A DNA stretch of 64,000 bases from positions 644,686 to 708,685 of the forward strand of contig CBDBDH010000001.1 in the NCBI GenBank assembly GCA_965203725.1, written 5' to 3'. This document shows positions 2,299 through 64,000 of this stretch, in pieces. This DNA comes from Gammaproteobacteria bacterium (lineage in GTDB: Bacteria > Pseudomonadota > Gammaproteobacteria > UBA4575). Position numbers and translations under genes: made by a program. Below the pieces are notes generated by a model that saw only the letters and a list, made by a program, of their open reading frames with translations, did no database searches and was not told the origin of the DNA. The stretch's first letter is position 1. Every line of letters starts with the position of its first letter.

Positions 2299-2419
2299 GG
2301 CTTCAAATAATGCAACATCATCAAAATAGGCTTACTTGGCTTTTCGCTTAACGGGCTTATCCATTTAAGAGAGTGCCATAGACTGTAACAGACCATCCCA
2401 TACAGAAAAAAGGCCGCGA

Positions 2420-2776: not shown

Positions 2777-2879
2777 AATTCCTCCCCTTTTAATGTTTAT
2801 GTGTCTAACTAGGGTAACACTACAAAGGAGGCAATAAAGAGCTTGCTATAACCGAGCTTCACACAATGGAGAATGACAA

Positions 2880-3218: not shown

Positions 3219-3249
3219 TTCTTCCAGTTATGAAAATGGAGACTAGCAA

Positions 3250-3651: not shown

Positions 3652-3955
3652 CCAAACAAATCACATTCCTGCTAATGGCAAGCCTGTCTGTTTGCAGCTG
3701 CACCAAGAACCAGGATTTGCTAAAACAGATCACTACGAATCAAGATGCGTGGTGAAACAATCGGGAATTTCTCTACATCTAAGCAATCCATCCTGCTATA
3801 ACGGACCTAGTTCTCCTGTCGGCCGCAATACTCCACTGCCAACCTTCGCAGTTTGCCGCCCGTCGCGATTAGTATGTCATCATAGGTCCAGTAGGGATTG
3901 ACGCCGTTTCCCTTCACTAGTGGCTGCATGATGATCAGGTCGGTATCCTCGAATC

Positions 3956-4762
3956 TCACCCCACCATGCCAACAGCACTTGAGGATTGTGGCTTGCATCG
4001 ATCCAGTTTCTTTTTCGCTATACGCTCAATGCGACTTGCGACCTTCGCAACCGTGTCGAGTGAGACGTTGGCCGGTAAATGACCGTTGGGCAGGTACCTG
4101 GATATATAGCCTGCGCTGCCCCCCTGAAGTCCGAAACGGGTCGTTACGACATAGGCGACTGCTTCCGCTTCAATCTCTTTTGTACTTGTGTCCAAGTAAG
4201 CACGGCTTGGCCACCATTGATCCTGATCGCAGCCCAGATGACCCAAAAAGATGTGAGCGAGCTCATGACACAACACACCGAAACGGCTTGGTGGATCCAG
4301 ACCCTCATGAATCACAATATGCATCTTCCCGTCAGTCAGACGGTCATCGAACGTCGCAAATCCGCCATGGGTCGGTGAAAGTTCCTTGAAATCAACCCGA
4401 ACGCTGTCATGGCGGGCAGCATTGTTTACCATCCTCTTAAGCCATTTAGGGTTCCAATCCCCCTCAAAGTGTGCAAATCTTTTCAGCTCTTTGGGTAAGG
4501 TGTCGCCCTCAGTCTGATCCAGGTCATACACCAGAATGACCGGATGCATCGGGGCCAGAATGACCATAGGTCGGGTATCTTCCTTGAGCGTGTACCCGAA
4601 CCGGGCATACCAGGTCTTTTGAGTAGCAAAGAAACTGCAACTTGGGTTCTGGATTTTCACCAGCATGTTGTTGAAAGGGGAATACTGGCGAAAGCGGGCC
4701 ATGAAGCTGACCATCTCCTGAAACTTCTCTGTAGACCGATACACCCCACTGGCTCGCAGCAA
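3956..4762 (-). CDS. ArdC-like antirestriction-family protein (ssDNA-binding N-domain plus HExxH zincin peptidase domain); N-terminus possibly disrupted
   Basis: N-part YSPFNNMLVKIQ...ATQKTWYARFGYTLKEDTRPMVILAP matches the ArdC_N/DUF1738 pattern (YsGiNvllL...TfkQak.lGg.VrKGEk). C-part has HELAHIFLGH metal-binding motif. ORF track start is a TTG. Confidence 0.5.
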   Translation of the reverse strand: MLRASGVYRSTEKFQEMVSFMARFRQYSPFNNMLVKIQNPSCSFFATQKTWYARFGYTLKEDTRPMVILAPMHPVILVYDLDQTEGDTLPKELKRFAHFEGDWNPKWLKRMVNNAARHDSVRVDFKELSPTHGGFATFDDRLTDGKMHIVIHEGLDPPSRFGVLCHELAHIFLGHLGCDQDQWWPSRAYLDTSTKEIEAEAVAYVVTTRFGLQGGSAGYISRYLPNGHLPANVSLDTVAKVASRIERIAKKKLDRCKPQSSSAVGMVG

Positions 4763-7723: not shown

Positions 7724-8078
7724 GGTTTGTCTCCTTCCGCTTTCTGCGGTGTCCTATTTTTGAATAATCCACGACCTTGATACCGCTGGGCAGGACCTTC
7801 ACGGCATCAGGCTTCACTTTCTCGACATCCTGGGCCATCACGCCCATTTCGGTGGTCGGGTGTCCCTTGAACTTGTAGGTATACACGGCCAGGCCGTCCC
7901 GGGTCTCCCCCACCTTCTTGATGTCTTTCTTCACGCGCCGGTCACTCATGGCATAGGCCATGTAGCCAGCGACGCCCAACCCGCCCAGGTTCAGGAGGTT
8001 GTTGAAGCTGCTCTGCTTGGCGTTGGAACGGGCCTGTGCGACCCCGACCTCTCCGGCCCCAAGGGCGCTCGCCCCCAC
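7710..8078 (-). CDS. Peptidase S74 (intramolecular chaperone auto-processing) domain protein; probably the C-terminal remnant of a phage tail-fibre/spike gene
   Basis: AYAMSDRRVKKDIKKVGETRDGLAVYTYKFKGHPTTEMGVMAQDVEKVKPDAV matches the S74 domain signature (SDxRxKxxI ... Y.yk ... G.iAQeve...P.aV). Only 122 aa; no large upstream fibre ORF. Confidence 0.6.
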   Translation of the reverse strand: MGASALGAGEVGVAQARSNAKQSSFNNLLNLGGLGVAGYMAYAMSDRRVKKDIKKVGETRDGLAVYTYKFKGHPTTEMGVMAQDVEKVKPDAVKVLPSGIKVVDYSKIGHRRKRKETNRVRA

Positions 8079-8399
8079 GCCGAGCTGGTGGGCACCCCGG
8101 GCCGCAAAATGATTTCATACCGGATTCCTCCAGATTGCTGCAACTTCCGGCCAAGGTAAGGTGCCGGGCCATTGCAAACATTACTCAGTACGAGGAAGTC
8201 CCTGCCTATTCATCTTAAGTACAAGGAGCGACCCTGTACCGGTAATAAGACTGTCGTATTCAGCAGGTAACCCGACTTAGCGGGACTACTGAGATAATGT
8301 CTGCAGGTGCTAATATAGCAAGGTGGTTATAGATTCATCAACATTATGTGGTCATCTGGCACAGGTTCCAGACGAGGTTAAATTTAGGAAATTAAGGAA

Positions 8400-8531
8400 A
8401 TGCTTATTTTGATGAGGCGATCTGGAGAAAAAATCAGGATCGGTGACGAGATCAAAGTGGAGATACTGGGGATTCAGGGCAATCACGTACGGATTGGCAC
8501 TCACGCGCCCCGACATGTGAAAGTCCATTGA
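8400..8531 (+). CDS. CsrA/RsmA-family RNA-binding protein homologue, C-terminally truncated (43 aa)
   Basis: Translation [43 protein letters not shown] aligns residue-for-residue with E. coli CsrA 1-43 ([43 protein letters not shown]). Ends before the R44 equivalent. GGA-rich leader AGGAAATTAAGGAAATG. Below the track's size cut-off. Confidence 0.65.
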
Positions 8532-8673
8532 GCGAAGGTACACCAGAAATCCATGAAGAACAATCAATGTGAGCGATAAAGAAACTACAGCTCAAGCATT
8601 GGACGTGTTTGCTCATATCTCTTTGATTCAAAAAATTCTGCTAGCTAATTGCGAAGTTAAAACACGGGCTTGA

Positions 8674-8865
8674 GTGACTGACTGCCAGAAAACGAATGGG
8701 CAGAAAATTCACGTTGGCCTTGAAGATGGCAGAAGAATTAAGATCTGGCTGCCTGGACTCCGAACCCCTGTTGCAGAAAATCCGGAATTATCTCTAGTGA
8801 ACTCCAGCAGGCCAACTGCAATTCGGACATCAGTTCAGCACCTAAAGGCTCTTGGAGGGCAGTAG
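8674..8865 (+). CDS. Hypothetical protein (63 aa)
   Basis: ORF only; no motif. Confidence 0.2.
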   Translation: MTDCQKTNGQKIHVGLEDGRRIKIWLPGLRTPVAENPELSLVNSSRPTAIRTSVQHLKALGGQ

Positions 8866-9093
8866 CTTCGGATGCACCCGCGATAGCACCCTCAGGCCTG
8901 ACTTCGCTAATTGGAGATCTAATAATGAAGACTCCATTCTCTCATGGCTCCTCACACAACTTAATCGACTCTGTGTGTGATTTTTCGACACCATTCATTA
9001 CCGGGTAAAAACTGGTGTCCTAGGTGGCTAGAATCTGCCCAGTCAGACAAATGTGTCGTTGCGGCCTCCGACAACAAAAAAGGAGAACTTGAA

Positions 9094-9351
9094 ATGGTGG
9101 AGAACCAAGAGACCATAACTATGAGCAAGATTTTGGCGGAGTTTCCCGACCTTGAGATAATAGAGACCTTAGACGTTCGACACTTTCGCGAGGTATCCGA
9201 TAATGGAAAGACTTTTCAGTTTGTAGTAGTACATGGAAGTTGTCTGAATCCTTCTTCTTCGCCAAAGGGGTCTTTTGCTCTTGCCCTGGAGCTTCATCAT
9301 CTGGTGAATTTTGCGAGGGATATTCTTCGCAATTATGAGGATTACGTATAG
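9094..9351 (+). CDS. Hypothetical protein (85 aa)
   Basis: Strong RBS AAAAAAGGAGAACTTGAAATG; in frame with track ORF 8977-9351. Confidence 0.4.
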   Translation: MVENQETITMSKILAEFPDLEIIETLDVRHFREVSDNGKTFQFVVVHGSCLNPSSSPKGSFALALELHHLVNFARDILRNYEDYV

Positions 9352-9867
9352 CTTTGCTTTGACACACGACGACCTCCTGCACTAAAATTAAAAGTGCAGT
9401 GGCTGTAGTGTGTCCGAGGCTCAACTGCCACGAAAGCCTCTCCACACACCTGACCTTAACTGCATTCCCAGCCCGGCGCAACCGCCCTAGCTCCACACTC
9501 CGGATTCCCAAAAATTTCGGAAAATTTTTTTGAAAACCCACAATCCACTTCGTGGAAACCACCGGCAAGTCCCTCACCGGCCGAAATCGTCAATATCCGG
9601 GTAAATTTCAGCTCGTAGCAGACCGAAGCTACAGACAAGTGAGGCCTTCCGATCCCCCGTACGGGTGACCAGGACAGGCTTCCCCAGCACACCCCATCCT
9701 TAACCAAGCCCAAAGGCCAGGATATTCATTTCCGAGGAAAAATTTTTTTTTGGGGTTTCGAATGTACGGGTACTACCCTGTAAGTACTATGGGGCCGCCC
9801 CCTCATCCATGGCCGGGTATACCCCCGCGCGACCGCGAACATTAGGCGTACGATCCGCCTCCCGCCG

Positions 9868-9915
9868 GCTCCAAGTCCCAGCTCCAAGTCCCGGCTCCAA
9901 GTCCCGGCTCCAACT
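9868..9915. repeat. Short tandem repeat GCTCCAAGTCCC(A/G) x about 3.5
   Basis: ggctccaagtccca gctccaagtcccg gctccaagtcccg gctccaact read directly in the sequence; non-coding context. Confidence 0.8.
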
Positions 9916-10195
9916 CGCACGCCCACGCCGGCCCTGCTTGCAGGCCCTGATCGGTGGCGGCCGTGAATGGCTGTGAACGTCTGTGAATGGCCTCGGAAAC
10001 CTATTTGGTTGCTCCCATATCAACCGAACAGATATTCTAACTGACTGATATTATTGGATATAGATCAATTGCGGCAACAAAGTTGCCCCTACAGTTGCCC
10101 CTAACTACCGATTGAAAACCGCAATCACAGACCAAAGCCGGAAAGGGTTCGAGCGGGTAAGTAAGCCACTGCATCCAAGTTGGCATTTTTCATTT

Positions 10196-10549
10196 TCATG
10201 TGATCGGCCATTCCCAGTCATGACCCAGACACTGGTAGCGGATAATCCCGCAGATCCTGTCCGCAGACATGCCGAAATGCTGTCCCAATTGCCTCCAGCT
10301 CAGCCCTGCCCTGCGCAGGCGTACTGCTTCCGTTACCTGCTCGTGGCTAAGCGAATGGCTTGCAGGCCCATACATGGACCTGTACATACTGAGACCCAGA
10401 CAGCCTGCACGGTACAACTGTCCACGCACTACCGCTGGGCTGACGCCATGCCGCCTGGCTACCTGTTTGACAATTTGGCCTTCCTCGTAAATCTGGCGCT
10501 TCCATTCGTCTACAGGGTAATGATCGGCTCTGCCCATACGTGCCCCCAC
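10196..10549 (-). CDS. Small DNA-binding protein with two resolvase-type (HTH_7-like) helix-turn-helix motifs
   Basis: Segments QIVKQVARRHGVSPAVVRGQLYR and LSHEQVTEAVRLRRAGLSWRQLGQHFGMSADRICGIIR resemble recombinase/resolvase C-terminal HTH. The overlapping opposite-strand ORF 10112-10567 has no features and is considered spurious. Confidence 0.45.
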   Translation of the reverse strand: MGARMGRADHYPVDEWKRQIYEEGQIVKQVARRHGVSPAVVRGQLYRAGCLGLSMYRSMYGPASHSLSHEQVTEAVRLRRAGLSWRQLGQHFGMSADRICGIIRYQCLGHDWEWPIT

Positions 10550-10804
10550 TGGTTAGTAAGATCATGATCGTGCGGCCTTGGGCTGGTTCAAGAATAAACC
10601 GGCCTGATCCGCTCCGTCTTGGTCAAATCACTATGCCGAAATTCAGGGATTTATCAAGCCTGCAGAACCGAAAATAACTCCCGGTATAAACACGATCGAC
10701 GGCGGGCATCCATCGCTTGCCCAAAATGCCGGACAAGGCTCCAGTCGGGCAATGCCGGGAAGTCCTGGCCCTGAATGAGACTGCTGAAGGCTCACTTTGG
10801 GCTG

Positions 10805-11270
10805 CCCAGTCTCAACCCCGCCCCCGCAGTCTCAAAATCCTTTGGAGTAGTCTCACAAAAATGGCAAATCGTCTCACTGCTATCTCACAATAACAGTAAT
10901 ATATTCATGTAGTTACGCAGTTTCCGGCAATTTTTGCCCCGATAATTCTCCAGAAATTGAACGCATTTAATTTCCGCGCAGAGATATCTATGTGTAGTTG
11001 CCTTGGAAGACCCTCTTAACCGGCGTATTTGAGGGTATAGGTGATGACAGACTTTCTTGCTCGCACGCACGTATATATGTGTATATACCACATTGTCCTA
11101 ATAATAATAATAAATATCTTATAAGTATTTATATTATATAGGATTATGCATGAGATAATGGTGAGACTAAATCGCTATTTTGTGAGACTAAATCGCTATT
11201 TCCTGAGACTGGGAACACTTTTTCAACCCACATTGAGACAGATTCTTCACGATTGAGACCGTGAAAAATG
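10805..11270. promoter_or_regulatory. AT-rich core flanked by phased 6-mer iteron-like repeats (GTCTCA x4-5 on left, TGAGAC x5 on right, about 22-bp spacing) including two 21-bp perfect direct repeats
   Basis: Left: ...cagtctcaaaatcc...agtctcacaaaaatggcaaatcgtctcactgctatctcaca. Right: gtgagactaaatcgctatttt gtgagactaaatcgctatttc ctgagactggg...attgagacag...gattgagaccg. Centre has (TAA)n/AT-rich sequence. Lies in the 1-kb divergent gap between the HTH gene and the RadC-led operon. Confidence 0.55.
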
Positions 11271-11587
11271 TCACTAACGCCTGATCCTGATCGGTTCACG
11301 ATGCCGTTTCAGCTGGACCTCGCGTCGGCTGAGATTACCCCTGGCTATGTATCCAAGACACGCCCTGCGGCCGTGAAAAAGCTTCGGCTGCCCAAATTTG
11401 AGGGTTCAGACGGCCCCCAGCCCGACATGCTGACGCGCTGCTGCCGGCAATGATCTTGGCTGACTGACGCCTCGATCACTCGCATGACGATGCAGCTCTT
11501 TTCCTAAATCTCGATCCGCAAGAGAGGGTTTACATATAGGACATAATGTCCTATACTATGCAATACTAACCATGGGTCTGATCCCAC

Positions 11588-12076
11588 TTGAATGAGCAAG
11601 GAGAAACTCATATGAAAAAACTCTCAAGCATGACGAGCAAGCAAAAGGACGAGACCGTCCAGCTTGCCATCAAGATTCTCTCTTACCGACATCGCGCAGG
11701 CCAAACCCTTGGCAGTCCCGATGAAACCTGCAACTACCTTTGCCTTCGGATGGCCGAATACCGCAATGAAGTGTTTGGCGCACTGTACCTAGACAACCTT
11801 TGCCGCATCATCGCGATCAAGGAGCTTTTCCAAGGCACAGTCAACTCGGCATCCGTGCATCCCCGTGTCGTGGTGCAAGAGGCCATGGAAGCGAATGCGG
11901 CAGCCGTCGTGTTCTTCCATAACCATCCTTCGGGAGTCGCCGAACCATCCCGAGCCGATGAAATGATTACCCGCAGACTCAAGGAAGCCTTGGCATTGGT
12001 CGATGTTCGAGTACTCGACCATTTTGTCGTGAGTGCGGGCGAGTCCGTTTCATTCGCGGAACGGGGATTGCTCTGA
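11588..12076 (+). CDS. RadC-like JAB/MPN-domain protein (UPF0758 family)
   Basis: Motif FFHNHPSGVAEPSRADEMITRRL (ExnHxHPSG...PSxxD JAMM signature); likely true start at MKKLSSM (about 11612). Confidence 0.75.
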   Translation: MNEQGETHMKKLSSMTSKQKDETVQLAIKILSYRHRAGQTLGSPDETCNYLCLRMAEYRNEVFGALYLDNLCRIIAIKELFQGTVNSASVHPRVVVQEAMEANAAAVVFFHNHPSGVAEPSRADEMITRRLKEALALVDVRVLDHFVVSAGESVSFAERGLL

Positions 12077-37933: not shown

Positions 37934-38149
37934 GGTTATCCTAGCCAATTCGCTGTGTATGGCACAAGGCATTCACGAGACCTCCCAAAAAGTGTCGTTA
38001 ATCTACATATCTCTGGATTCAAGCCACCTGAATGTGGCCTAACTAGAATCGACAGTGCAAAGTGAAGTCCGCTCACCATTGTATAGAGCCCAACCGAAAA
38101 CTCTGGCCAGACACTCTGTATCAAAACGGATACTTTAAAAATCTTGGGT

Positions 38150-38878
38150 TCAAGCTAAGGCCTCAAACTCCTTGTTCTTGCAAGGCAAAAAATTGGATGG
38201 CCACGGACTGACCAACTTACAAAGCAACTGGTATTGGACCGGTGCATATTTATTAACCTGCTCAACTGTTACTCTGACCTGATTTAAGTCTGTGGATTTG
38301 ATCAGCTGCGTGAATTCAGCAGAATAGTAGCGAGGGGCATAGCCAACAATGGTGATCGGATCGCCAGTACGCATCAGTAAAGCCATTTCATCTTGAGAGT
38401 TTTGCAAATCCTGCAACAAGTACAATCGTTCACCAACTTGCATTTGAAGTGCACGTTTCCTGTCTTCCTCATGTAGGTGCCGTAGTCCCCTACAAAAAAA
38501 GTGCACTTCGTAATTTTTCCATACTGTAGGTTCAGGACACGGAAACAGTTCCAGGGAATCCGTAGCACGCAATCCGCCTGTACGGGCAAGCTCTTCCAGC
38601 TCGTCATAGCGAGCCTCTGACAGCCCCAGCCAATAGAGATAATCCTTATATTCTGGACGATTCTTGGCCAAGATCCGACTAGTAAACATCGGAAAGAGTT
38701 CTTCGGATTCGTATACCTTGTACAAATCCTGCATACGCCCAAATCGGTGAGATTCAGGCATTTCCTCAGCACCTCGCGTGTAAACGAACTTGTAGAGATC
38801 GTCTTCCCTGGTAAGCCTTCCAACCGGTGCCCACTTCCTGGTCTTGGAATCCTGCCATGCGACAAATAGAGCTTTCAT
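38150..38878 (-). CDS. Protein with HipA N-terminal-subdomain-like (HipS-like) region; putative partner of the upstream kinase
   Basis: ALFVAWQDSKTRKWAPVGRLTREDDLYKFVYT...LFPMFTSRIL resembles the HipA N-terminus (LVTWMNNQRVGELT...FKY...FFDNLLPEG). Low GC; 25 nt downstream of the kinase gene. Confidence 0.45.
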   Translation of the reverse strand: MKALFVAWQDSKTRKWAPVGRLTREDDLYKFVYTRGAEEMPESHRFGRMQDLYKVYESEELFPMFTSRILAKNRPEYKDYLYWLGLSEARYDELEELARTGGLRATDSLELFPCPEPTVWKNYEVHFFCRGLRHLHEEDRKRALQMQVGERLYLLQDLQNSQDEMALLMRTGDPITIVGYAPRYYSAEFTQLIKSTDLNQVRVTVEQVNKYAPVQYQLLCKLVSPWPSNFLPCKNKEFEALA

Positions 38879-38902
38879 TGTGTCCGTCCTCTTTGCTAGA
38901 AA

Positions 38903-48330: not shown

Positions 48331-49629
48331 ATGAACGGCCTGTGTCGTGACTGCGGCGAGGTGTCGCTGGTCGAGGACGCCCGTGCGTGTCCTGCGTGCG
48401 GATCTGTGCGCCTGGTGCGCCATGCGGAACTGCATGAACTGGCCATCGCCCACCTCGACTGCGATGCTTTCTATGCCGCGATCGAAAAGCGTGACCATCC
48501 GCAGTGGCGCGACCAGCCGCTGATCGTCGGCGGCGCCCACCGCGGCGTGGTGGCGGCCTGCTGCTACCTGGCCCGCGCCCACGGCGTACGCTCGGCCATG
48601 CCCATGTTCCAGGCCCTGAAGGCCTGCCCGGACGCCATCGTGGTGCGCCCGGACATGAAACGCTACCGGCAGGTCAGCGAACAACTTCGCACCATGATGC
48701 TCGCGCTCACTCCCCTGGTGGAGCCCCTGTCGATCGATGAGGCCTACCTGGACTTGACCGGCACCACGGCCCTGCATGGCAAGAGCCCGGCAAAAAGTCT
48801 CACGGAACTGGTTCGCAAGGTGGAGAACGAACTGGAGATCACCGTGTCTATCGGCCTCAGCTACAACAAGTTCCTGGCCAAGATCGCCTCCGACCTGGAC
48901 AAGCCCCGCGGCTTCTCGATGATCGGGCGGGGCGAAGCGCAGGCCTTCCTCGCGGAGAAGCCGGTGGAGCTCTTGTGGGGCGTGGGCCGGGCCCTGCAGC
49001 AGCGGTTGGCGCACGACGGCATCACGCGGATCGGGCAGTTGGTCCCCCTGCAGGAGGCGGTGCTGGTGGCGCGCTACGGCAAGATCGGCCACTGGCTGTA
49101 CGGCTGCGCCCGCGGCCGGGATGCGCGCACCGTCAATCCCGAGCGCGAGGCGAAAAGCCTGTCCTCGGAGATCACGCTACAGCAGGATACCGCCGACCTC
49201 GAGACACTTCGCACTACCTTGTGGAAGCTCAGCGAGACCCTGTCGGGGCGCATGAAAAAGGCCGGCGTGATGGGCCGCGGCGTGATCCTGAAACTCAAGA
49301 CCGCGGACTTTCGCCTGTTGACCCGCTCCCGACGACTGGAAACCCCGAGCCACTCGCCCGAGTCCATGTTCCGCATCGCCGAGACCCTGCTCGAGCGCGA
49401 GGCCGACGGGCGCGCCTTTCGACTGATCGGCATCGGTGCCGCCCCGCTGATTGCGGCCGACCCGATGCACCAGGACGATCTTTTCGCGAAGGCCGAAGAG
49501 GGTGCGGGCGAGACCCCGGTCGACCAGGTCATGGATGCGATCGAGGAGAAGTTCGGCCCCCGGGCCGTGGTGCGCGGGCGCGGCTTCGGCGTGGAACTGA
49601 AACGCCAGGGGCCGAGCAAGGCCGAGTAG
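48331..49629 (+). CDS. dinB: DNA polymerase IV (Y-family) with N-terminal CxxC...CxxC zinc-ribbon extension
   Basis: LDCDAFYAAIE and SIDEAYLD catalytic blocks; N-terminal CRDCGEVSLVEDARACPACGS. Confidence 0.8.
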   Translation: MNGLCRDCGEVSLVEDARACPACGSVRLVRHAELHELAIAHLDCDAFYAAIEKRDHPQWRDQPLIVGGAHRGVVAACCYLARAHGVRSAMPMFQALKACPDAIVVRPDMKRYRQVSEQLRTMMLALTPLVEPLSIDEAYLDLTGTTALHGKSPAKSLTELVRKVENELEITVSIGLSYNKFLAKIASDLDKPRGFSMIGRGEAQAFLAEKPVELLWGVGRALQQRLAHDGITRIGQLVPLQEAVLVARYGKIGHWLYGCARGRDARTVNPEREAKSLSSEITLQQDTADLETLRTTLWKLSETLSGRMKKAGVMGRGVILKLKTADFRLLTRSRRLETPSHSPESMFRIAETLLEREADGRAFRLIGIGAAPLIAADPMHQDDLFAKAEEGAGETPVDQVMDAIEEKFGPRAVVRGRGFGVELKRQGPSKAE

Positions 49630-50900: not shown

Positions 50901-51335
50901 TCCGTCCCCGAAATTACATATGCATTCCTCATCAACCTTTAAGAAATTTTTTGCTAGAGCTGACGGCTTTGCAATCAGGCTGCTTACAGCTCGTACTTCA
51001 GTACACTATTGCTAACAGATCGTCTTCTATAATTTAAGTTGGCCAACGCAAGGTCTATAGAACACCTCTCCTGAAATTCTAAGTTTACAGTTAAAAGTGT
51101 TGTGTATAGGCCTTTCAGATACTCTCACCCTATCCCACCAACGCACCCAATTGAATGAAAGTACCGCCTGGAGTTCTGATAATTTTTGATAACCCATAGT
51201 AGATAGTGTAAGTTCACATCTTGCCTAGTAAGAGGAAGTCTCAGCTAAGCAATATTAGTTGTTCTCAAGCGCCGAGTCTGGACGGTGCGGGCACCACGAA
51301 GCTAGTGGCTAGCAGGGTCAGATAAAATAACAATA

Positions 51336-52637
51336 ATGAATCAGCAGTCCAGCACAGCGCAGCAATCAATCAGCCATTCGGATTTGAAGCAGTGGGCACA
51401 ACAAGATGCCCAAAACGATAACGCCAAAGGCAATAATTGTCATCAATCTTTCGAAGGGCGAATCCAACTAATTATGCAGCATTACACTGCTGATATTACG
51501 AAAAATTTTATCGGTGAATTCCAATCCCGGATAAAGGATATTCAAGATGACTTCTCGAAAATCGTAGGCCGCCTAGTAGACAATCCGGCACCCTACATCA
51601 AAGAGATTGAAACTCAAGTCAATGCAGCAATCGCCACAGCTGAAAAGCAATTTGCGCCCAAGATTAAGAATTTGCAAATGGAGCTTGCTGAATGGGAAGC
51701 TCGGTTCAAATCAGGCCTACACAACGGTATCTCAAACCCAAAAAATCAAAATCCTGTTTGGCACTGGGGTTTGATTCTTTTTCTTTTCGCTATAGAAGTC
51801 ATTCTCAACTCAAGGTTTTTTGCTGAAACAAGTGAATATGGATTATTGGGAGGGACTATGGCCGCAATCACCGTCTCGGTTGTGAATGTAGGCGTCCCAA
51901 TATTGTTAGGCTTCTTTGCACACAAACTGTATTACAGCAAAGGTGCTTTGCCGAATGCAGCTGGCATTGTAGTAATACTCTTGCTAGTAATTGTTGCAAG
52001 TGTTTTTAACTACCAAGTCGCCGAGTTTAGAGATCACATGCTGGGGGCTGCAGGTCATCCTCCTTCCCCATTTCCCGAATATTTTGCTTTGTTGACCATT
52101 GGGGGAGCAATCGCGATCATATCGTTTTGGAAAATGTTTAGTTACATGGACCCTTACGACAGACCGAGACGCTGTCATGAAAATAATGAACGAGCAATAA
52201 ATGACTATGAAAATACAGCACTGAAGCCAATCAGAGAGGCACAGAATGCTGTGAATGAGATTTTGAAAGAAATTCAAATTCAGTTGAATAAAACACAGGG
52301 TGTTATCGAAAGAGAAATAGCAGATTTTGACTATCGATGCACTGAAGCCATCAAAGATTCCAACAAAAGTGTCGATACCTATCACCACATTTATTGTCCC
52401 GTAAAAGCTGATCCAGATCCTCCAAAACCAGATTTCTCAGAGGAAGATTTTGATTTTTCGTCAGCCCAAAAATTTGTATCTAAAATAATAGGAAATTTGG
52501 AAGACAGTTGTCGTAAGGCAAAGGAAAATTGGCTGCCCCTCCACCAGAAGGTTAGACAAGACTTAGTGGATACTCACCAAAAATTTCAGGCAGTAGTTGT
52601 CGCGAATATTCAGGCAGCCATATCGCAGGCTAGCTAG
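51336..52637 (+). CDS. Hypothetical membrane protein (433 aa; N-terminal coiled-coil region, about four central TM helices, C-terminal cytoplasmic domain)
   Basis: About 40 % GC; TM segments WHWGLILFLFAIEVILNSRFF, AITVSVVNVGVPILLGFFAHKLYY, AAGIVVILLLVIVASVFNY, YFALLTIGGAIAIISFWKMF. Confidence 0.6.
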   Translation: MNQQSSTAQQSISHSDLKQWAQQDAQNDNAKGNNCHQSFEGRIQLIMQHYTADITKNFIGEFQSRIKDIQDDFSKIVGRLVDNPAPYIKEIETQVNAAIATAEKQFAPKIKNLQMELAEWEARFKSGLHNGISNPKNQNPVWHWGLILFLFAIEVILNSRFFAETSEYGLLGGTMAAITVSVVNVGVPILLGFFAHKLYYSKGALPNAAGIVVILLLVIVASVFNYQVAEFRDHMLGAAGHPPSPFPEYFALLTIGGAIAIISFWKMFSYMDPYDRPRRCHENNERAINDYENTALKPIREAQNAVNEILKEIQIQLNKTQGVIEREIADFDYRCTEAIKDSNKSVDTYHHIYCPVKADPDPPKPDFSEEDFDFSSAQKFVSKIIGNLEDSCRKAKENWLPLHQKVRQDLVDTHQKFQAVVVANIQAAISQAS

Positions 52638-52713
52638 CCGTTTCTGAAAACGTCATATACTGAAGTACCCCTCGACTGTATTCGACTTGTCAGATCGATA
52701 GTAAGGCATTTAC

Positions 52714-53532
52714 ATGAATGAAATGACCAAGACCTTGGCTGGAGTTGTGCTAGGTGCGATTGGTTTGACCGTAGTGGCTGGCTTCTTGTTTTATTCTGAG
52801 AAGGTTAAGGTAGAGCGCTCGCTTGTGAATCCGGTCTCACATTGCCCTGTTACGGAGTCAAAAACTGTTTGGAGCTTCTATAAGGTTCATCCACCCAGTA
52901 TCTTGAAGCGAACAGCCGTTCTGATTGATGCCACTGACCACATACCTGAGTCACACAGACACCAACTTGCTTCTTGGTTTGAGGAAGACTTCACGAATAC
53001 ACTTGTCCAATTTGAGCAGGTGGCAATTTACGAAGTAAGGCCTCAAAAAAATTCTGCGAACCCAGTGCTTGATGAACCCCACTTCAATCAATGCTCACCG
53101 CCAAGTGTGGCAAATAAATGGATAGAAAACCCAAGACTGGTGCGTATGAAATTCAAAGAGGAGTTTATGGAGAGAAAGCTGTCAGTTATTAGAGCACTTG
53201 CTTCTCAGGACGAAGCCAGATGGTCTCCTATCATGGAAATTGTAGAAATTTTGTTCAACGATTTTGACAGAATAGTCCTTGTTTCAGATCTGATGCAACA
53301 TACAACTAGTTGCTCTCTTTATAAGAGGAGAGATAGCAAAGGGAGTAAGAAGTTGGGCTGTCTAACAGATTCTCTGATGCCCCTAGACACTAAAAGTCTT
53401 GATGTAATCTTTCTCAAACGAAATAAGATAACCGCATTACAAGACAGCTCTCTGTTGAATTTTTGGCAAGAACACATCGAAGCGAGGCAGGGAACATTTT
53501 TAGTAAAAGCGCAATTGTCATCTATTGATTAG
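52714..53532 (+). CDS. Hypothetical N-terminally membrane-anchored protein (272 aa)
   Basis: TM TLAGVVLGAIGLTVVAGFLFY; low GC; 76 nt after the previous gene. Confidence 0.55.
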   Translation: MNEMTKTLAGVVLGAIGLTVVAGFLFYSEKVKVERSLVNPVSHCPVTESKTVWSFYKVHPPSILKRTAVLIDATDHIPESHRHQLASWFEEDFTNTLVQFEQVAIYEVRPQKNSANPVLDEPHFNQCSPPSVANKWIENPRLVRMKFKEEFMERKLSVIRALASQDEARWSPIMEIVEILFNDFDRIVLVSDLMQHTTSCSLYKRRDSKGSKKLGCLTDSLMPLDTKSLDVIFLKRNKITALQDSSLLNFWQEHIEARQGTFLVKAQLSSID

Positions 53533-53672
53533 ACTGATTCGTCGGGCACACACTTCACAGAACTTGAACTGGATTTTAGAGAAAGAATGTCTTTCTCCAT
53601 TACCTGACAATTTCTAGATTGAAGTTGACAAAATAGGACGTTAGTAGATTGCAGTCACTATGAGTGTGAAAG

Positions 53673-54182
53673 TCAATTTAGATAAACCCTTTTCCCATGC
53701 TTCCAATATTTAGGGTTGTAACTAATCTGGTTGCTCCATATTCCAAGTTTTTCTTCCTTAGCACAACGCTCTTGGCTTTTATATTGGTCGCTATACGCAG
53801 CTATGGCCAAGCCGTTTCTCACCATCCATTCACAAACATCCTTGCCGTCACAAAATACAATGCCCAAGGCACGATCAAATTTGTCGTAGCCTCGAATATC
53901 TACCTTTACGAATCGCCCACCAATCGCCTGTATTAATTCCCCTTTCGCCCACTTTCCCTGGTTGTACCATCGTCCATTCTTTTGGGCGAGTTGCCTATGT
54001 TCCGGTGCGTCCAACCCATACAAACGAATTTTGATTCCTTTCACTACAATATCGTCAGCATCAACTACAAAAGCCTTACCAGAAATAGTTTCCTCTTGTC
54101 TTGGGCTAAGTCTTGCCCAGACAAGTGGTAGTAACAAAGCCAAACAAATAATTAAAACTATGATTTCTATCACTGCTTCCAT
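53673..54182 (-). CDS. Membrane-anchored thermonuclease (staphylococcal-nuclease/SNase-like) protein
   Basis: N-terminal TM IEIIVLIICLALLLPLVWA; SNase signature FVVDADDIVVKGIKIRLYGLDAPEH. Confidence 0.65.
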   Translation of the reverse strand: MEAVIEIIVLIICLALLLPLVWARLSPRQEETISGKAFVVDADDIVVKGIKIRLYGLDAPEHRQLAQKNGRWYNQGKWAKGELIQAIGGRFVKVDIRGYDKFDRALGIVFCDGKDVCEWMVRNGLAIAAYSDQYKSQERCAKEEKLGIWSNQISYNPKYWKHGKRVYLN

Positions 54183-54704
54183 CTATTTTTGTCGTTTTAC
54201 ATTATCAAGGAGTAATACACAGTCTCGGTGGCAATCCGGATGACTATCCTCATAATCCATAAACTGTAGCAACTCCATGCTCTAGTGATGCTATTAAGCC
54301 AAGACGTCCTATAGCCTGACCGTCAAATATACTTGAAATGTCAGCTTTGCTATCACATTCAAATGTAATTTAGCCTTTATCAGATAGGCGGGCTATGTGT
54401 GGGGCTACGAAAAGACCATTGGTTCCATCCAATTGCTCCACAGAAGTCTCACATACTCACCATGGATTTATATGGCAACCAATTAAATGGCGAGAATTGC
54501 TAAAACCCGTAGCACGACAACGGGGTTCTATCCGTCCTATTTTGCGGTGAACTACTCTTTCCCTCTTTCTAGCCTTTAATGACAAATTTCTATTCTATTT
54601 ACTCAGGTGTAGCTTCAACTCCTATGTTTGAGTTTCTCCAATTAGACTTGCTTTTTTCTCTCATAATTTCTCTTTACTGTTCTCATCTCCGTAGCAAAAT
54701 GGAT

Positions 54705-57940: not shown

Positions 57941-59287
57941 TTGCATGGGGTCCGAGCACCATCACGAATCCGGTGCGCTCTGGCGGGCCCAAACATTCAA
58001 AAAAAGGCTGGCGGGACACGATTGACCTACGACCTTCGGACATTCAGGGGGGATCTCTTCGGGGGCATTACCGCTACGGTCGTGGTGTTTCCGGCGGCAC
58101 TCGCATTCGGCATGGCGTCGGGACTCGGGGCGCCCGCCGGCATTTACGGTTCGATCGCGGTCGGGTTCTTCGCCGCGGTGTTCGGCGGCACTCGCACGCA
58201 GATTTCAGGCCCGACCGGCCCGATGGCGGTCGTCACGGCGGTGATCGTCACAAGCCATGCCTCGACGCTTTCAGAGGCCCTGACGATTGTCGTGCTGGGC
58301 GGCCTGCTGCAGGCCGGGCTTGGGCTGACGCGAATCGGGCGCTACGTGGCATACACGCCGCATGTGGTGATCTCCGGGTTCATGTCCGGCATCGGCATCA
58401 TCATCATCCTGATCCAGCTGTTGCCCCTGCTGGGTGCACCCGCAGCGGGTGGGCCCATGGAGTCCGTCGGCGGGCTGGCGTCTGCGCTCGACAACATTAA
58501 TCTCAGTGCGGTTGCGATCGGCGTGCTCTCGCTCGCCATCGCCGCACTCTGGCCGCATCGGTTCTCGACCTACCTGCCGGGGCCGGTCGCAGCCCTCATC
58601 CTCGGCACGCTGCTGGGCGTGATGTGGCTGCACGATGCGCCGGTTCTGGGACCGGTCCCAATCGGTGTACCGGTGTTCGCCCTGGAGCTGCCGACGACCG
58701 GGTTTTTGCTGCACGCCCTGGAGCCGGCCCTGATCCTGGCGCTGCTGGGATCGGTGGACAGCCTGCTGACGTCGCTGATCGCGGATTCGGTCACCGGTAC
58801 GCGCCACGAACCGAACCGGGAGCTGGTGGGCCAAGGCATCGGCAACGTGGCGGCCGGACTGATCGGCGGCATGCCGGGCGCGGGGAACACGCTGGGCACG
58901 CTGACCAATATCCGCGCCGGCGGCACCACCCGGGTGTCCGGTGCGACCTATGCGGTCCTGATGCTGGTGCTGGTGCTCGGTTTGGGCGACTACGTCGAAC
59001 CGATCCCGCGCGCGGTGCTGGCGGGAGTGCTGATCAAGATCGGCCTGGACATCGTCGACTGGCAGATGCTCGCCCGTGTCCACCGGATGCGCCCGGAACA
59101 CGCGCTGGTCATGCTGGCGACGCTCGGCATCACGGTGTTCATCGACCTGGTGACCGCCGTGGCGGTCGGGCTGATCGTGGCGGGACTGACCCACGCGCGC
59201 CAGCTCGAGGACCTTGAACTCGACAGCGTCGTCTCGGTGCCGCTGCTGGATCGCAATTTCTTCGGTCTTGCGGGCGATGCGGGCTGA
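57941..59287 (+). CDS. SulP-family anion transporter, transmembrane domain only (reading frame ends in linker; STAS domain continues in another frame)
   Basis: Multi-TM SulP core; ORF stops at ...LLDRNFFGLAGDAG* within the linker. Confidence 0.6.
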   Translation: MHGVRAPSRIRCALAGPNIQKKAGGTRLTYDLRTFRGDLFGGITATVVVFPAALAFGMASGLGAPAGIYGSIAVGFFAAVFGGTRTQISGPTGPMAVVTAVIVTSHASTLSEALTIVVLGGLLQAGLGLTRIGRYVAYTPHVVISGFMSGIGIIIILIQLLPLLGAPAAGGPMESVGGLASALDNINLSAVAIGVLSLAIAALWPHRFSTYLPGPVAALILGTLLGVMWLHDAPVLGPVPIGVPVFALELPTTGFLLHALEPALILALLGSVDSLLTSLIADSVTGTRHEPNRELVGQGIGNVAAGLIGGMPGAGNTLGTLTNIRAGGTTRVSGATYAVLMLVLVLGLGDYVEPIPRAVLAGVLIKIGLDIVDWQMLARVHRMRPEHALVMLATLGITVFIDLVTAVAVGLIVAGLTHARQLEDLELDSVVSVPLLDRNFFGLAGDAG

Positions 59288-59310
59288 TCGCGCTGAAAGG
59301 GACGTTCACC

Positions 59311-59616
59311 GTGGCCTCGTCCCATCGCCTGGTCGGTGCGTACAGCATCGACGTCCAGAAGCACGAGGTGGTGATCTTCGACTTCTCCGACACCGTGCAT
59401 GTCGATGACAGCGCGGCCATGGTCATCGCGCAGCTCATGAGCGCGGCCCGCAAGGCCGGCACCGAACTGGTCGTGGTGGGCCTGTCCGGGCCGGTGCTGG
59501 AGATATTTCGCGCGCTCGATCTGCTGCGCAATGTGCCGCCGGGGCGCAACGTCGAGACCATGGACGAGGCCCGGGAGATTGCGCGGGCGTTGCTGAACGT
59601 TGGCGCAGACGATTGA
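59311..59616 (+). CDS. STAS domain (SulP C-terminal domain) in a different frame; frameshifted or split from the preceding gene
   Basis: Frame is open upstream (…GLIALKGTFTVASSHRLVGAYSIDV…) and overlaps the end of the TM ORF; typical STAS pattern. Confidence 0.5.
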   Translation: MASSHRLVGAYSIDVQKHEVVIFDFSDTVHVDDSAAMVIAQLMSAARKAGTELVVVGLSGPVLEIFRALDLLRNVPPGRNVETMDEAREIARALLNVGADD

Positions 59617-59961
59617 ACACGCAGGCCAGTCGCTACCTGTTAGCAAGGGAACTATGTGGGAGCAGTGAGGTTGCGCAATGCAACCTCACTCTCCCATGCG
59701 CCTTAGGCACGAACCAGAAATGCCCAGCTCTTATAACCATAATCATGGGCATCCAGATACCTGTTTGAGTTTTTTACCCTACGATATCGGGTATAGACCC
59801 AACGATAGCCTTTTGGTGCACTTTTTGAAGTGCGCATACACATACACCTCCTTTCCCAGAGGAGATTTTCTTTGCAATTAGTACGCACACATGCTAGATT
59901 TAGCATTGGAAATTGATAATAATTACAACGCGCTGCCCTCTGGGGAACAGCACATAATTTT

Positions 59962-59994
59962 AAAAGCGAACTGTAGAGAGTTCGTTTTTTTTTG
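59962..59994. terminator. Bidirectional Rho-independent terminator
   Basis: GCGAACT-gtagag-AGTTCGT followed by T9 on + strand; on the - strand the hairpin is followed by UUUUAAAAUU, directly after the immA stop. Confidence 0.55.
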
Positions 59995-59998
59995 CCAC

Positions 59999-60532
59999 TT
60001 AAATAATTTTTGCTTTCTTAAACTCTCCCCATTGTTTGGCAGCAGCTTCGTACGAAACACCAAATTTGCTGACGATATCCTCAGCACACTCACAGTCGCC
60101 AACATGATCAACAGAGACTAAAAGCTCTCCTCCAAAGCAGTTGGCTTGCCACTCACTACTTCTGAATGGAGGAATCTCTTCTCGAGAAATCCTGCGAGTA
60201 AGCGACAAATTCGAGTGAATAAAAAGATGTCCCAGTTCATGCGCTATTGTCATCCTGTCCCTCCCCCTACCCTCACACGCGCCATCATATACGTCGCGTC
60301 TTAACATTATTATGTTCTGATCAGGCATTGTCCTTCCATGGTCGGCACCCATCACAGCTTTCTCTTCAATTACAAGTGAGAAGGAATCATCCATGCTAGG
60401 CAATGCCAAATCAACAATGTCGACTACTGGGAAATATGCTTCATCCCAATGAAAAGCTTTTCGTACCTCTCTTGCGAAGTCACGAATATCGGCTCTGGAA
60501 AGAGGTGGCACCTCAATAGTCACATGGCTCAT
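59999..60532 (-). CDS. ImmA/IrrE-family (COG2856) zinc metallopeptidase
   Basis: HEXXH motif MTIAHELGHLFIH; about 40 % GC; 5 nt after the XRE gene. Confidence 0.7.
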   Translation of the reverse strand: MSHVTIEVPPLSRADIRDFAREVRKAFHWDEAYFPVVDIVDLALPSMDDSFSLVIEEKAVMGADHGRTMPDQNIIMLRRDVYDGACEGRGRDRMTIAHELGHLFIHSNLSLTRRISREEIPPFRSSEWQANCFGGELLVSVDHVGDCECAEDIVSKFGVSYEAAAKQWGEFKKAKII

Positions 60533-60537
60533 AGCTG

Positions 60538-60900
60538 TTACTCACGACAGTGTTTCTTCAAGATAGTCATCATTTTATCGATGTCCTCCTGTGAAAGTTC
60601 ATCAAATCTCCTTGCAAAAGTGGTCGCTAATTCTCGTTGGCCTTTATTAGTGTTATTTAATGATAGTTTTAGATTTTTCCTTGTGTCAGCAGCTAATGAT
60701 TCCAGCTTTTCTTGTTGTTCCTCACCAAGCTCAAAGTATTTTGCAATATTTACAACCAGCTTAGGTGGCACGGCCTTTTTCCCGGTTTCTAATCCTGATA
60801 CATATGCCGATGTGACTTTTAATTTTTCTGCCATGTCTTTCAGTCGAACACCTTTCTCGATTCTGAGCATACGTACAGCTTTACCAAATGGTGTTAACAT
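60538..60900 (-). CDS. XRE-family HTH transcriptional regulator (ImmR-like)
   Basis: HTH LKDMAEKLKVTSAYVSGLETGKK; paired with the ImmA-like gene. Confidence 0.65.
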   Translation of the reverse strand: MLTPFGKAVRMLRIEKGVRLKDMAEKLKVTSAYVSGLETGKKAVPPKLVVNIAKYFELGEEQQEKLESLAADTRKNLKLSLNNTNKGQRELATTFARRFDELSQEDIDKMMTILKKHCRE

Positions 60901-61448
60901 GTTTTATCCTCTGTTGATGTTTAAGTTGGCGATAAATCTCTCCCATAAAATTAGACAATCTTCAACCTACTAAGTTCAGTTAATTTCTATGAAATATCAT
61001 AAAATTTAACTTACTGGTTTAAATAGTAACCAATACTTCACCTTGTGTCAACTACCTGTTTGATTTGCTGTTTGATTTGTTTGATTTGGATGCACTGGAA
61101 ACTTGATGGCCCTTTGTCTGGTTTTGGAGACCGAAACACTCAGTACCATATGCATCTAGTGCAAATTATCAGGTAACCAGTATTAATCTTGCTGAGTAGC
61201 AAACTTCAGATGCTATAAAAGCCATCCAACAACAATTATTTCTTTCCGAAGCTCAGGAGTGGAGATAACTATACAATTCAAGATCTCATGCACCGACGCT
61301 TGTGGAGACACTCGTATGGCTATGTGCAGGGAAGGCACCGTGTTCACCTTGGATACAGACTTGTGGGTGTTCGCTTTAATACGACCTGAATGGGGCAAGC
61401 GCAAGTAACAGGAGTTTGTGCGCTCATTTTTCGAAACAACAATGCGAC

Positions 61449-62732
61449 TTAGCCTCTTTTTTTGACCCGCTTCGCGCTCGGCACGATCGTCTGGCGGTGC
61501 CCGCAGGGCTTCCAGGCCGGTGCGATCACGTTCGGCATGTCCGAGCGGTGCAGCAGGCTCGCGTGCATCACGGTGAATTCCCCGTAGCGGTCATTGACCG
61601 CGTCCATGGCCCGGTTCAGCCGGTCAAAGCGGCTCTCCTCCCCTGCGAACAGCTCCCGCTGTCCCCGGACCGGGCGCGGGTCCAGGGCCGTGACTTGCAC
61701 CTGGAACACCCCTTCTCCGCGCCAGTGCTCGCAGAGCATGCGTCGGCACAGCCCGATGATCGCCCGGCTGTCGTTGGTCGGGGTGTCCGTCCTGAAACGG
61801 TGGCTGCCGAGCCAGCCTTCCCGGGTGCGAAGGCCGATCAGGTAGCGCTGGGCGACCAGCGCGTGCTGGCGCATCCGCGCGCCCAGCTTCTCGGCCATGT
61901 GCACCAGGTACATGAGGATGATGTCGCGCCCGGTGGTGTCCGGGGGCATGATCTTGCCGTGCCCCAGGCTCTTGGGGGCGCCGACCCGGGTTTCCACCGG
62001 GGCCGGGTCCTCGCCGCGGCACATCTTCCAGATGCGCCGGCCCTGGTTGCCGAAGCGCTGCCCGAGCACGCTGATGGGCAAGCCTGCGACCTCCCCGCAG
62101 GTGAGGGCCCCGTGGCGGGCCAGGAACCCGGCGATGCCCCGGTTGACCCCGCACAGCTCGGTGACGGGCACATCCTTCAGCCGCTCGCGGGCCTCCCAGG
62201 GGGCGATGACGGCCAGACCATTCGGTTTTTTCCGCTTGGCGGCGTACTTGGCGGTGGTCTTGTCGCCGCTGATGCCGACGGTGCAGCCGAGCCCCGAGAC
62301 CTCGGCGACCTGCGCCTTGATCATCGCCCCGATGGCCTCGGGGGGCCGGTTCCAGTAGCCCTGGCAGTGGGTGAGGTCGAGGAACGCCTCATCGACGGAG
62401 AATACCTCCACGTCCGGGGTGATGTTTTGCAGGGCGGCCATGATGTCGGTGGAAACCTTGGCATAGCGCTCGGGGTGGGCCGGGACTTGGAGGATCTCCG
62501 GGCACACCTTCCGGGCCGCCCTCAGGCGCGTGCCGATGCCGATGCCGCAGGCCCTCGCCTCGTAGGAGCAGGTGATGAGGCAGGTGCCGGTCAGGCCGTT
62601 GGTGATGCCGATGGGGCGGCCCCGGTATTCGGGGTAGTCGCGCTGCTCGATGGAGGCGAAAAAGGCATCCATGTCGACGAAGGCGATCAGGCGGGGCCAG
62701 GGCTGGGGGTTGTCCGGCATAGGATCCTTCAT
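61449..62732 (-). CDS. Second Y-family DNA polymerase (DinB/DinP-like)
   Basis: LIAFVDMDAFFASIEQRDYPEYRGRPIGI and SVDEAFLD blocks; start placed at MKDPMPDN (track ORF starts further upstream). Confidence 0.7.
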   Translation of the reverse strand: MKDPMPDNPQPWPRLIAFVDMDAFFASIEQRDYPEYRGRPIGITNGLTGTCLITCSYEARACGIGIGTRLRAARKVCPEILQVPAHPERYAKVSTDIMAALQNITPDVEVFSVDEAFLDLTHCQGYWNRPPEAIGAMIKAQVAEVSGLGCTVGISGDKTTAKYAAKRKKPNGLAVIAPWEARERLKDVPVTELCGVNRGIAGFLARHGALTCGEVAGLPISVLGQRFGNQGRRIWKMCRGEDPAPVETRVGAPKSLGHGKIMPPDTTGRDIILMYLVHMAEKLGARMRQHALVAQRYLIGLRTREGWLGSHRFRTDTPTNDSRAIIGLCRRMLCEHWRGEGVFQVQVTALDPRPVRGQRELFAGEESRFDRLNRAMDAVNDRYGEFTVMHASLLHRSDMPNVIAPAWKPCGHRQTIVPSAKRVKKRG

Positions 62733-62986
62733 GCCGGGACCCCGGGCCGGGATCAAGCATAAAGCGAACCCTTGATTGCTTTGGTTTTGCTGCCCGGCGT
62801 ACAAGGCCTTTCTTAAGCGGTGCCTGTCCGGTAATGTGCACGCTGAAGGCAAGGTGCAGGAAGGATTCGATTTTGACTGCAGGGACTGCAACCAAATCCC
62901 CAGGGTCCTGTCTAAGAATCTGTTGGCCATCGAAGCACAGCCGTGCAGGCATGCCCAACGCACACCCATCAACAAGGAGATCAGAC

Positions 62987-63274
62987 ATGAAAAGACAAAC
63001 CCTACTTCGATCCACCATCGCGGGAATCTTTGCCGTCGGTACAGGCCTTGCGGCCGGCAACGCCCTGGCCGGTGTCCCGGACGCCCCGAAAAACTGGGAA
63101 AAATGTGCGGGGGTGTCCAAGGCGGGCATGAACGACTGCGGCTCGTTCGACGGCAAGCACGAGTGTGCGGGCCAGGCCACCGAGGACAACTCCGAGCATG
63201 AGTGGGTCTACCTGCCGGAAGGCACCTGCACCAAGATCGGCGGCATGGTCAAGGCCGTCAAGCCGGCCAAGTAA
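62987..63274 (+). CDS. bufA: DUF2282 bufferin-type RiPP precursor (BufA-like) with Sec signal peptide and four Cys
   Basis: MKRQTLLRSTIAGIFAVGTGLAAGNALA signal; core EKCAGVSKAGMNDCGSFDGKHECAGQ...GTCTKIGG matches DUF2282; followed by a DUF692 gene. Confidence 0.6.
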   Translation: MKRQTLLRSTIAGIFAVGTGLAAGNALAGVPDAPKNWEKCAGVSKAGMNDCGSFDGKHECAGQATEDNSEHEWVYLPEGTCTKIGGMVKAVKPAK

Positions 63275-63290
63275 CCGGACCTGTCCGGAC

Positions 63291-64000
63291 ATGGGAGGCG
63301 ACCCTTCACCGGATCCGGCAAGGCCGCCCACTCCAGGGACCGGAGTGGGGCTTCGCGCCCCCCATGTCGCGGAAATCCTCAACACCCGCCCGGACCTCGA
63401 TTTCTTTGAACTGCTGACCGACAACCACCTGTGCGCCGGGGGCTACGCCAGGCAGCAGGCCTACCTCGTGCGCGAGCACTACCCGGTCAGCCTGCACTGT
63501 GTCGGCATGTCCTTGGGCGGCACCGACCCCCTCGACTTCACCTACCTGGACAAGATCAAGACGCTCGCTAGGGAGCTCGAGCCCATGCACATCTCCGATC
63601 ACCTGTGCTGGACCTCGTGTCATTCCCACCACGCCCACGACCTGCTGCCCCTGCCCTACACCGAGGAGGCAGTGCGCCACGTCAGCCGGCGCATCCGCGA
63701 CATCCAGGATTACCTCGAGACCTCCCTGGTGGTGGAGAACGTCTCAAGCTACCTGGAGTTTGAAGCCTCGAGGATGAGCGAGTGGGAATTCCTGGCAGCC
63801 GTGGCAGGGGAGTCCGGCAGCCGGATCCTGCTGGACCTGAACAACATCCACGTGAGCCACTACAACAACGGCACCGATGCCGGGGAATACATCGAGCACA
63901 TCCCGCTCGACCGGGTGGCGGAAATCCACCTGGCGGGCTTCGAGCCCAAGGGCGAGTACCTGCTCGATGCGCACAACAACAAAGTGTCCGAGCCGGTCTG
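63291..64000 (+). CDS. bufB: DUF692/MNIO family (multinuclear non-haem iron oxidase, BufB-like), 5' part; continues beyond window
   Basis: GLRAPHVAEIL...FFELLTDNHL...HCVGMSLGGTDPLD...ISDHLCWTS...LLPLPYTEEA...VENVSSYLEF...LLDLNNIHVS...IHLAGF matches DUF692 throughout; no stop before window end. Confidence 0.7.
   Translation, partial: MGGDPSPDPARPPTPGTGVGLRAPHVAEILNTRPDLDFFELLTDNHLCAGGYARQQAYLVREHYPVSLHCVGMSLGGTDPLDFTYLDKIKTLARELEPMHISDHLCWTSCHSHHAHDLLPLPYTEEAVRHVSRRIRDIQDYLETSLVVENVSSYLEFEASRMSEWEFLAAVAGESGSRILLDLNNIHVSHYNNGTDAGEYIEHIPLDRVAEIHLAGFEPKGEYLLDAHNNKVSEPV

Follow-up and report, generated by a model that had tools for sequence, protein, structure and literature searches.

What does the end of this 64-kb window (the whole stretch of DNA analyzed here, positions 1-64000) encode, and what could switch it on? 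A gene for a small protein with four cysteines is followed there by a gene for an MNIO enzyme, the pairing from which the initial annotation had proposed the start of a bufferin operon. Bufferins are a class of peptides also named captophorins, and their operon type is also known as gig. They were described in 2024 by Leprevost et al. (PMC11626156); among more than 40,000 complete genomes, about 4,000 encode a DUF2282 precursor (PMC12452194). Our analysis agrees with the bufferin assignment on the basis of a BufA1 family match of the precursor, an orthologous enzyme that passes the BufB equivalog cut-off, and a DUF2063 gene (bufC) in relatives. We put at roughly 0.88 the probability that the window ends inside a bufferin operon of the Buf1 type (bufABC), of which it contains the promoter, the precursor gene and three quarters of the maturase gene, from its 5' end (Table 1).

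Table 1. Features of the window at and around the bufferin locus.
Feature	Position	Strand	Remarks
Low-GC blocks	2000-4000, 8000-12000, 38000-40000, 51000-54700		41-52% GC; background ~63-70%
DinB-like Y-family polymerase gene, other copy	~48331-49629	+	within 14 kb of the copy next to bufA
SulP/STAS gene, split	57941-59616		ORFs 57941-59287 and 59311-59616; 25-nt deletion near 59279/59280 relative to L001 and L003
Low-GC island	59627-61441		36-45% GC vs ~65%
IrrE/ImmA-type M78 peptidase	59999-60532	-	in low-GC island
XRE-family HTH protein (repressor)	60538-60900	-	in low-GC island
DinB-like Y-family polymerase gene	61449-62732	-	adjoins bufA spacer
Spacer upstream of bufA	62733-62986		254 nt
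ECF-type promoter GCAACC-N16-GTCT	62888-62913	+	~100 nt upstream of bufA
-35-like element TGCAACCAAA	62887-62896	+	core GCAACC 62888-62893
-10-like element TGTCTAA	62909-62915	+	GTC invariant in clade alignment
Ribosome-binding site AAGGAG	62974-62979	+	7 nt ahead of bufA ATG; read from sequence
bufA, 95 codons	62987-63274	+	ATG 62987, stop TAA 63272-63274; read from sequence
bufA, predicted signal-peptide part (residues 1-28)	62987-63070	+	MKRQTLLRSTIAGIFAVGTGLAAGNALA; by inspection and alignment
bufA, core part (67 aa, G29-K95, and stop)	63071-63274	+	Pfam match, alignment
Codon of C40	63104-63106	+	
Codon of C51	63137-63139	+	
Codon of C60	63164-63166	+	
Codon of C81	63227-63229	+	
bufB (MNIO enzyme), 5' part	63291-64000	+	236 of ~285 codons; ends at window edge

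The precursor gene, bufA, encodes the 95-amino-acid protein in which a Sec signal peptide and four cysteines in the DUF2282 arrangement had been noted. This description was borne out: the protein matches the Pfam family PF10048 (DUF2282, now BufA1) with 76.9 bits against a cut-off of 22.4, over residues 37-86 and profile positions 1-51 of 53, and its cysteines lie in the contexts EKCAG (C40), NDCG (C51), HECAG (C60) and GTCTK (C81). A database search returned 183 relatives, every one of them with a DUF2282/BufA1 domain. In an alignment of 29 of these, at 60-91% identity, C40, C51, C60 and C81 are invariant, together with H58, W37-E38, N49-D50 and A28; the cysteine pattern, whose absence from a proper alignment the initial annotation had counted against its own reading, is thus kept. 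An exact-sequence look-up found the identical 95-amino-acid BufA on two metagenome contigs (hereafter L001 and L002), whose DNA is ~95% identical to the window from position 62855/62872 to 64000.

The precursor reads MKRQTLLRSTIAGIFAVGTGLAAGNALA followed by GVPDAPKNWEKCAGVSKAGMNDCGSFDGKHECAGQATEDNSEHEWVYLPEGTCTKIGGMVKAVKPAK, with the predicted cleavage site between the two. Its N-terminus combines a basic region (K2, R3 and R8), a hydrophobic core and A-L-A ahead of that site; in the 29-sequence alignment the invariant A28 occupies position -1 and is followed by a conserved (G)VPD, with no lipobox cysteine. By inspection and alignment, we predict a Sec-type signal peptide. In an AlphaFold model, residues 1-25 have a pLDDT below 50, the signal-peptide segment being disordered, and the core, in which C40 falls within the first strand and C81 immediately precedes a short helix, is modeled with a pLDDT of 73-89; this agrees with the published description of the Buf1 fold (PMC11626156). 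BufA had no match among PDB sequences, and a Foldseek search of solved structures with the model gave no significant match.

The maturase gene, bufB, starts exactly 16 nt after the bufA stop codon, the spacing that had been annotated for a DUF692 gene. Its product, visible over 236 residues, matches Pfam MbnB_TglH_ChrH (PF05114, formerly DUF692) with 278 bits, over residues 17-236 and profile positions 2-221 of 263; the match had been claimed for the whole visible length, and only a 16-residue N-terminal extension falls outside the profile. We regard this extension as real coding sequence, since the start codon and frame of bufB are kept without indels in ten related loci, down to ~67% DNA identity. 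Among NCBIfam models, MNIO_BufB scored best against the partial protein (283 bits), followed by HvfB (199), ApyH, MbnB and ChrH, and the full-length ortholog on L001 (285 aa) reached 342 bits and passed the BufB equivalog cut-off of 310. Sequence matches in the PDB were the Histophilus somni DUF692 protein 3BWW (the closest), 8HCI and MbnB. Eight positions, H69, H104, E149, D182, N185, H213, D226 and H228, do not vary across 77 BufB sequences and represent putative iron ligands, which we take to correspond to H54, H90, E133, D163, N166, H192, D208 and H210 of MbnB. The last MNIO ligand is presumably the Glu of the LIEWD motif, positioned past the window end.

On both L001 and L002, a full-length bufB (285 aa) is followed 6 nt on by a bufC of 265-268 codons, whose product matches Pfam DUF2063 (68 and 65 bits, respectively; cut-off 27) and, weakly, the NCBIfam HvfC RRE model, with no match among PDB sequences. 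The operon had been expected to continue past the window with a DUF2063 partner, and in these relatives it does so; the bufferin reading stands because bufC is found there and the cysteine pattern is intact. The window itself stops 49 codons before the end of bufB and does not reach bufC; we infer the presence of both from three close relatives. A DoxX gene, for which the initial annotation had also suggested looking downstream, was not found within 8-9 kb past bufC on L001 or within the ~6 kb to the contig end on L002, and no DoxX-like family recurred around bufA across 80 related loci. This is no argument against membership, because in Caulobacter neither modification nor protection from copper requires the DoxX gene (bufD), and buf2 has none (PMC11626156).

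These 80 loci came from a scan of species-representative genomes, and all ORFs around bufA were clustered. Every locus carries bufA, 76 carry bufB and 74 bufC, and the order bufA-bufB-bufC is found in 74-76 of the 80. The closest relative surveyed is a chromosome of 1.97 Mb (OZ244850.1) with 98% BufA identity, and Candidatus Porisulfidus is also among them; judged from record names and two incidental mentions in the literature, the lineage looks like a sponge-associated gammaproteobacterial MAG. It should be noted that MNIO/DUF2063 clusters have already been reported in sponge-associated bacteria (PMC12538549). Two of the surveyed loci (L056, 7001-8635; L064, 7001-8630) have bufA followed by bufC and a sigma factor gene, with no MNIO bufB detectable ~7 kb either side, and another (L010, 1231-2151) has a tandem pair of bufA genes before a single bufB-bufC-sigma set. 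The 64-kb window contains no second buf locus.

By homology with Buf1 of Caulobacter vibrioides, BufA would be made as a 95-amino-acid precursor, in which the cytoplasmic multi-iron oxidase BufB and the DUF2063/RRE-like BufC would turn C51 and C60 into 5-thiooxazole rings. Sec export, with cleavage of the signal peptide after A28, and formation of a C40-C81 disulfide would follow, and the folded 67-residue BufA would then bind excess periplasmic copper. In bufferins, the central cysteines are the modified residues and the outer ones form a disulfide (PMC12452194), BufB and BufC are necessary and sufficient (PMC11626156), and the mature peptide is a periplasmic ligand of both Cu(I) and Cu(II) that guards the cell against too much copper (PMC11626156, PMC12452194).

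The likeness to Caulobacter buf1 (bufA1B1C1D1, CCNA_03363-03366) extends to the DUF2282 precursor with its four cysteines and its Sec signal peptide (here recognized by inspection), to the mature peptide (68 residues in Caulobacter, 67 predicted here), to the BufB-type MNIO gene directly downstream, and to the DUF2063 bufC gene that comes next, here seen in relatives. Unlike buf1, the locus has no DoxX gene (bufD), which is frequent in Buf1 clusters and not essential to them, and no nearby sigF-nrsF pair, linked ECF sigma/anti-sigma genes being a feature of a subset of Buf1 clusters. The gig (gold-induced genes) operons of Cupriavidus metallidurans and Legionella pneumophila are built from these gene families too and today count as Buf1 clusters (PMC11626156). 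Caulobacter buf1 has been characterized biochemically and the gig operons were described from their induction by gold and copper, whereas the locus described here is known from its sequence. It appears to be an ordinary, intact Buf1-type operon of minimal bufABC composition, one more example, from an uncultured lineage, of a very widespread form of periplasmic copper buffering, and it leaves that picture unchanged. Only three points are mildly new: how sigma factor and partner protein are arranged in this branch, its promoter motif, and the fact that the promoter is kept where no linked sigma factor is found.

The initial annotation had suggested that a CueR/CopR-type regulatory site might lie in the spacer upstream of bufA. 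No such site was found: the spacer contains just three long-range imperfect inverted repeats, none of them inside a promoter spacer, and no close-spaced MerR/CueR-like palindrome. The conserved element in it is instead an ECF-type promoter, GCAACC-N16-GTCT, the sole match to this motif in the 64-kb window. No sigma-70 promoter or terminator was detected in 62650-63350, and the predicted 5' leader is no more structured than shuffled sequences (MFE -14.6 kcal/mol, z = -0.27).

In an alignment of eight sequences of the window's clade, TGCAAC.AAA is invariant between variable flanking bases, and AAGGAGA at the ribosome-binding site is identical throughout. Apart from the -35 block, the GTC in the -10 element and the ribosome-binding site, no stretch of the diverged leader is invariant, which argues that the promoter is under selection and still used. 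Most likely, transcription of bufA starts at this ECF-sigma-type promoter. The surveyed relatives that carry a sigma factor gene have the motif in the form TGCAATCAAA-N-CGTCT (GCAATC-N16-CGTC), with CGTCT at the same spacing as the -10 element of the window. Across 81 loci, GCAAYYA-N-GTC occurs ~60-115 nt upstream of bufA in 36, against 0.28 expected from shuffles and none on the reverse complement, and the promoter motif is present in 23 of the 37 sigma-bearing loci. A similar layout is known from Caulobacter, where the sigmaF motif GTAACC-N16-CGAA, mapped by experiment, lies upstream of both buf operons and transcription of bufA1 starts 61 nt upstream of the gene (PMC3511200). The clear motif TGCAATCAAA-N-CGTCT might serve to predict which genes belong to the regulon.

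At 38 of the 80 related loci, a gene for an ECF sigma factor, identified by its Sigma70_r2 and r4_2 domain matches, directly follows bufC. In 37 of the 80, the sigma gene is followed by one for a conserved ~210-amino-acid single-pass membrane protein (e.g., L008, 9484-10116; L009, 9507-10130; L023, 9511-10155), which has a single hydrophobic segment and matches no Pfam family. It probably represents an unannotated family of anti-sigma factors; since it lacks a Pfam match, it differs from the NrsF/DUF1109 anti-sigma factor with which the Caulobacter sigma factor is paired. In this gammaproteobacterial branch, bufABC is usually accompanied by an ECF sigma gene and the gene for this unannotated protein, where Caulobacter has DoxX and NrsF.

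Searches of the 64-kb window and of the other members of its clade, L001-L007, gave no homolog of either the buf-linked sigma factor or the membrane protein paired with it. Since the clade keeps an ECF promoter with no sigma gene adjacent, control of the window operon by a sigma factor encoded elsewhere in the genome is suggested; none from the clade genomes was among the best 120 of 1033 profile-search matches. The -10 element of the clade is slightly altered (T/G-GTC-T/C-AA) and resembles the TCTAA/TCCAA boxes of sigmaE-type promoters. We tentatively offer a scenario that seems to us possible, if somewhat doubtful, in which the bufferin module was reduced to bufABC in a small-genome, probably sponge-associated lineage, DoxX and the ECF sigma/anti-sigma pair found in about half of the relatives were lost, and the operon, its promoter still under selection, came under the control of another ECF sigma factor encoded in trans, so that it would respond to a different stress signal. 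A promoter kept where its sigma factor is missing represents a small, testable case of regulatory rewiring.

In a rival reading, the operon does not serve copper defence. The same thiooxazole chemistry on BufA could have another role, the trigger being a different metal (Cd, Cr, Au) or else oxidative or hypochlorite stress, or the operon could be expressed only inside a host. In Caulobacter, chromium and cadmium induce the sigmaF regulon, to which both buf operons belong (PMC3511200), the gig operons respond to gold (PMC11626156), and the physiological trigger may differ here too, because a Microbulbifer MNIO/DUF2063 cluster was neither expressed nor induced by copper in culture (PMC12538549); the window's lineage has, in addition, lost the dedicated sigma/anti-sigma sensor pair seen in relatives (38 and 37 of the 80 loci). 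Nevertheless, we consider a role outside copper defence unlikely: copper binding and protection from copper stress are the sole functions shown experimentally for DUF2282 bufferins (PMC11626156), and nothing in the sequence points to another set of ligands, the same four cysteines and H58 being conserved.

We regard it as considerably less probable that the operon has fallen silent or is decaying, its promoter orphaned, in a genome reduced to ~2 Mb and rich in variable islands. Besides the lack of a nearby sigma/anti-sigma pair, such decay could be read from the neighboring SulP/STAS gene of the window, which is broken by a deletion, and from bufB, which differs from its L001 ortholog by 13 non-synonymous and 15 synonymous codon changes, several of them within the N-terminal extension. 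Against this, the reading frames are intact in the window and in L001-L007, every catalytic-type residue of BufB is conserved, and the promoter elements and ribosome-binding site are kept in the manner described above. Moreover, bufA shows no non-synonymous change relative to either L001 or L002; with seven synonymous changes against none non-synonymous in the comparison with L001, this gene is under purifying selection.

The operon shares broader traits with two other groups of MNIO systems. As in HvfABC/oxazolin of Haemophilus influenzae, fontiphorin and gonophorin, an MNIO enzyme is paired with a DUF2063 protein, copper-binding heterocycles are derived from cysteines and regulation is linked to stress (PMC11252979, PMC13097082); the precursors of these captophorins, unlike BufA, have EGKCG repeats and are not DUF2282 proteins. 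Methanobactin MbnABC likewise relies on an MNIO enzyme that acts on cysteines of a ribosomal peptide to form a copper ligand, but its precursor is short and depends on a leader, MbnC is the partner protein, export is dedicated, and the product serves to acquire copper. That the locus is an oxazolin/HvfABC-type or methanobactin-type cluster is very improbable, for although the HvfB and MbnB models also match the enzyme and its closest solved structure is the H. somni protein, the L001 ortholog fails the HvfB cut-off (236 vs 360 bits) and stays far below that of MbnB (61.6 vs 325 bits), BufA is a DUF2282 protein that lacks EGKCG repeats, and nothing like MbnA or MbnC is encoded nearby.

The Buf1-type bufABC block is chromosomal and lies between strain-variable segments. 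Upstream, homology of the window with L001, L002 and a third relative, L003, begins at 62855-62874, 15-30 nt before the -35 element. The initial annotation had placed the operon directly downstream of a second Y-family polymerase gene; a second DinB-like copy does exist in the window, but the gene next to bufA is divergent from it across the spacer and not upstream in the same direction. This polymerase gene is present in the window, L003 and L004 and missing in L001, and the spacer differs in L003. We therefore regard the adjacency of DinB and bufA as incidental, not as a conserved functional unit, and rejected a functional linkage between the two. On L001, a SulP/STAS transporter gene lies directly upstream of bufABC; on L003, a Fic protein is encoded between SulP and the polymerase and a HigA-like antitoxin between the polymerase and bufA; and the genes upstream on L002 are unrelated and include an OLD-like nuclease.

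Downstream, homology between L001 (11861-11975) and L002 (8368-8473), strains that elsewhere share ~95% identity, ends ~114 nt ahead of the bufC stop codon, and the BufC C-termini differ because of this break (268 vs 265 aa). L002 then carries ~5.9 kb of extra genes, including those for a KAP NTPase and a lipase, until homology with L001 resumes.

Neither tRNA genes nor Rfam families at gathering threshold were found in the window (1-64000). The SulP/STAS gene, which is a single gene of 539-623 codons on L001 and L003, is split in the window by the 25-nt deletion listed in Table 1 and may be a pseudogene or the product of an assembly error. The low-GC island between this gene and the polymerase is specific to the window, L003 having the Fic protein at this place and L001 nothing, and the further low-GC blocks along the window suggest several foreign islands.
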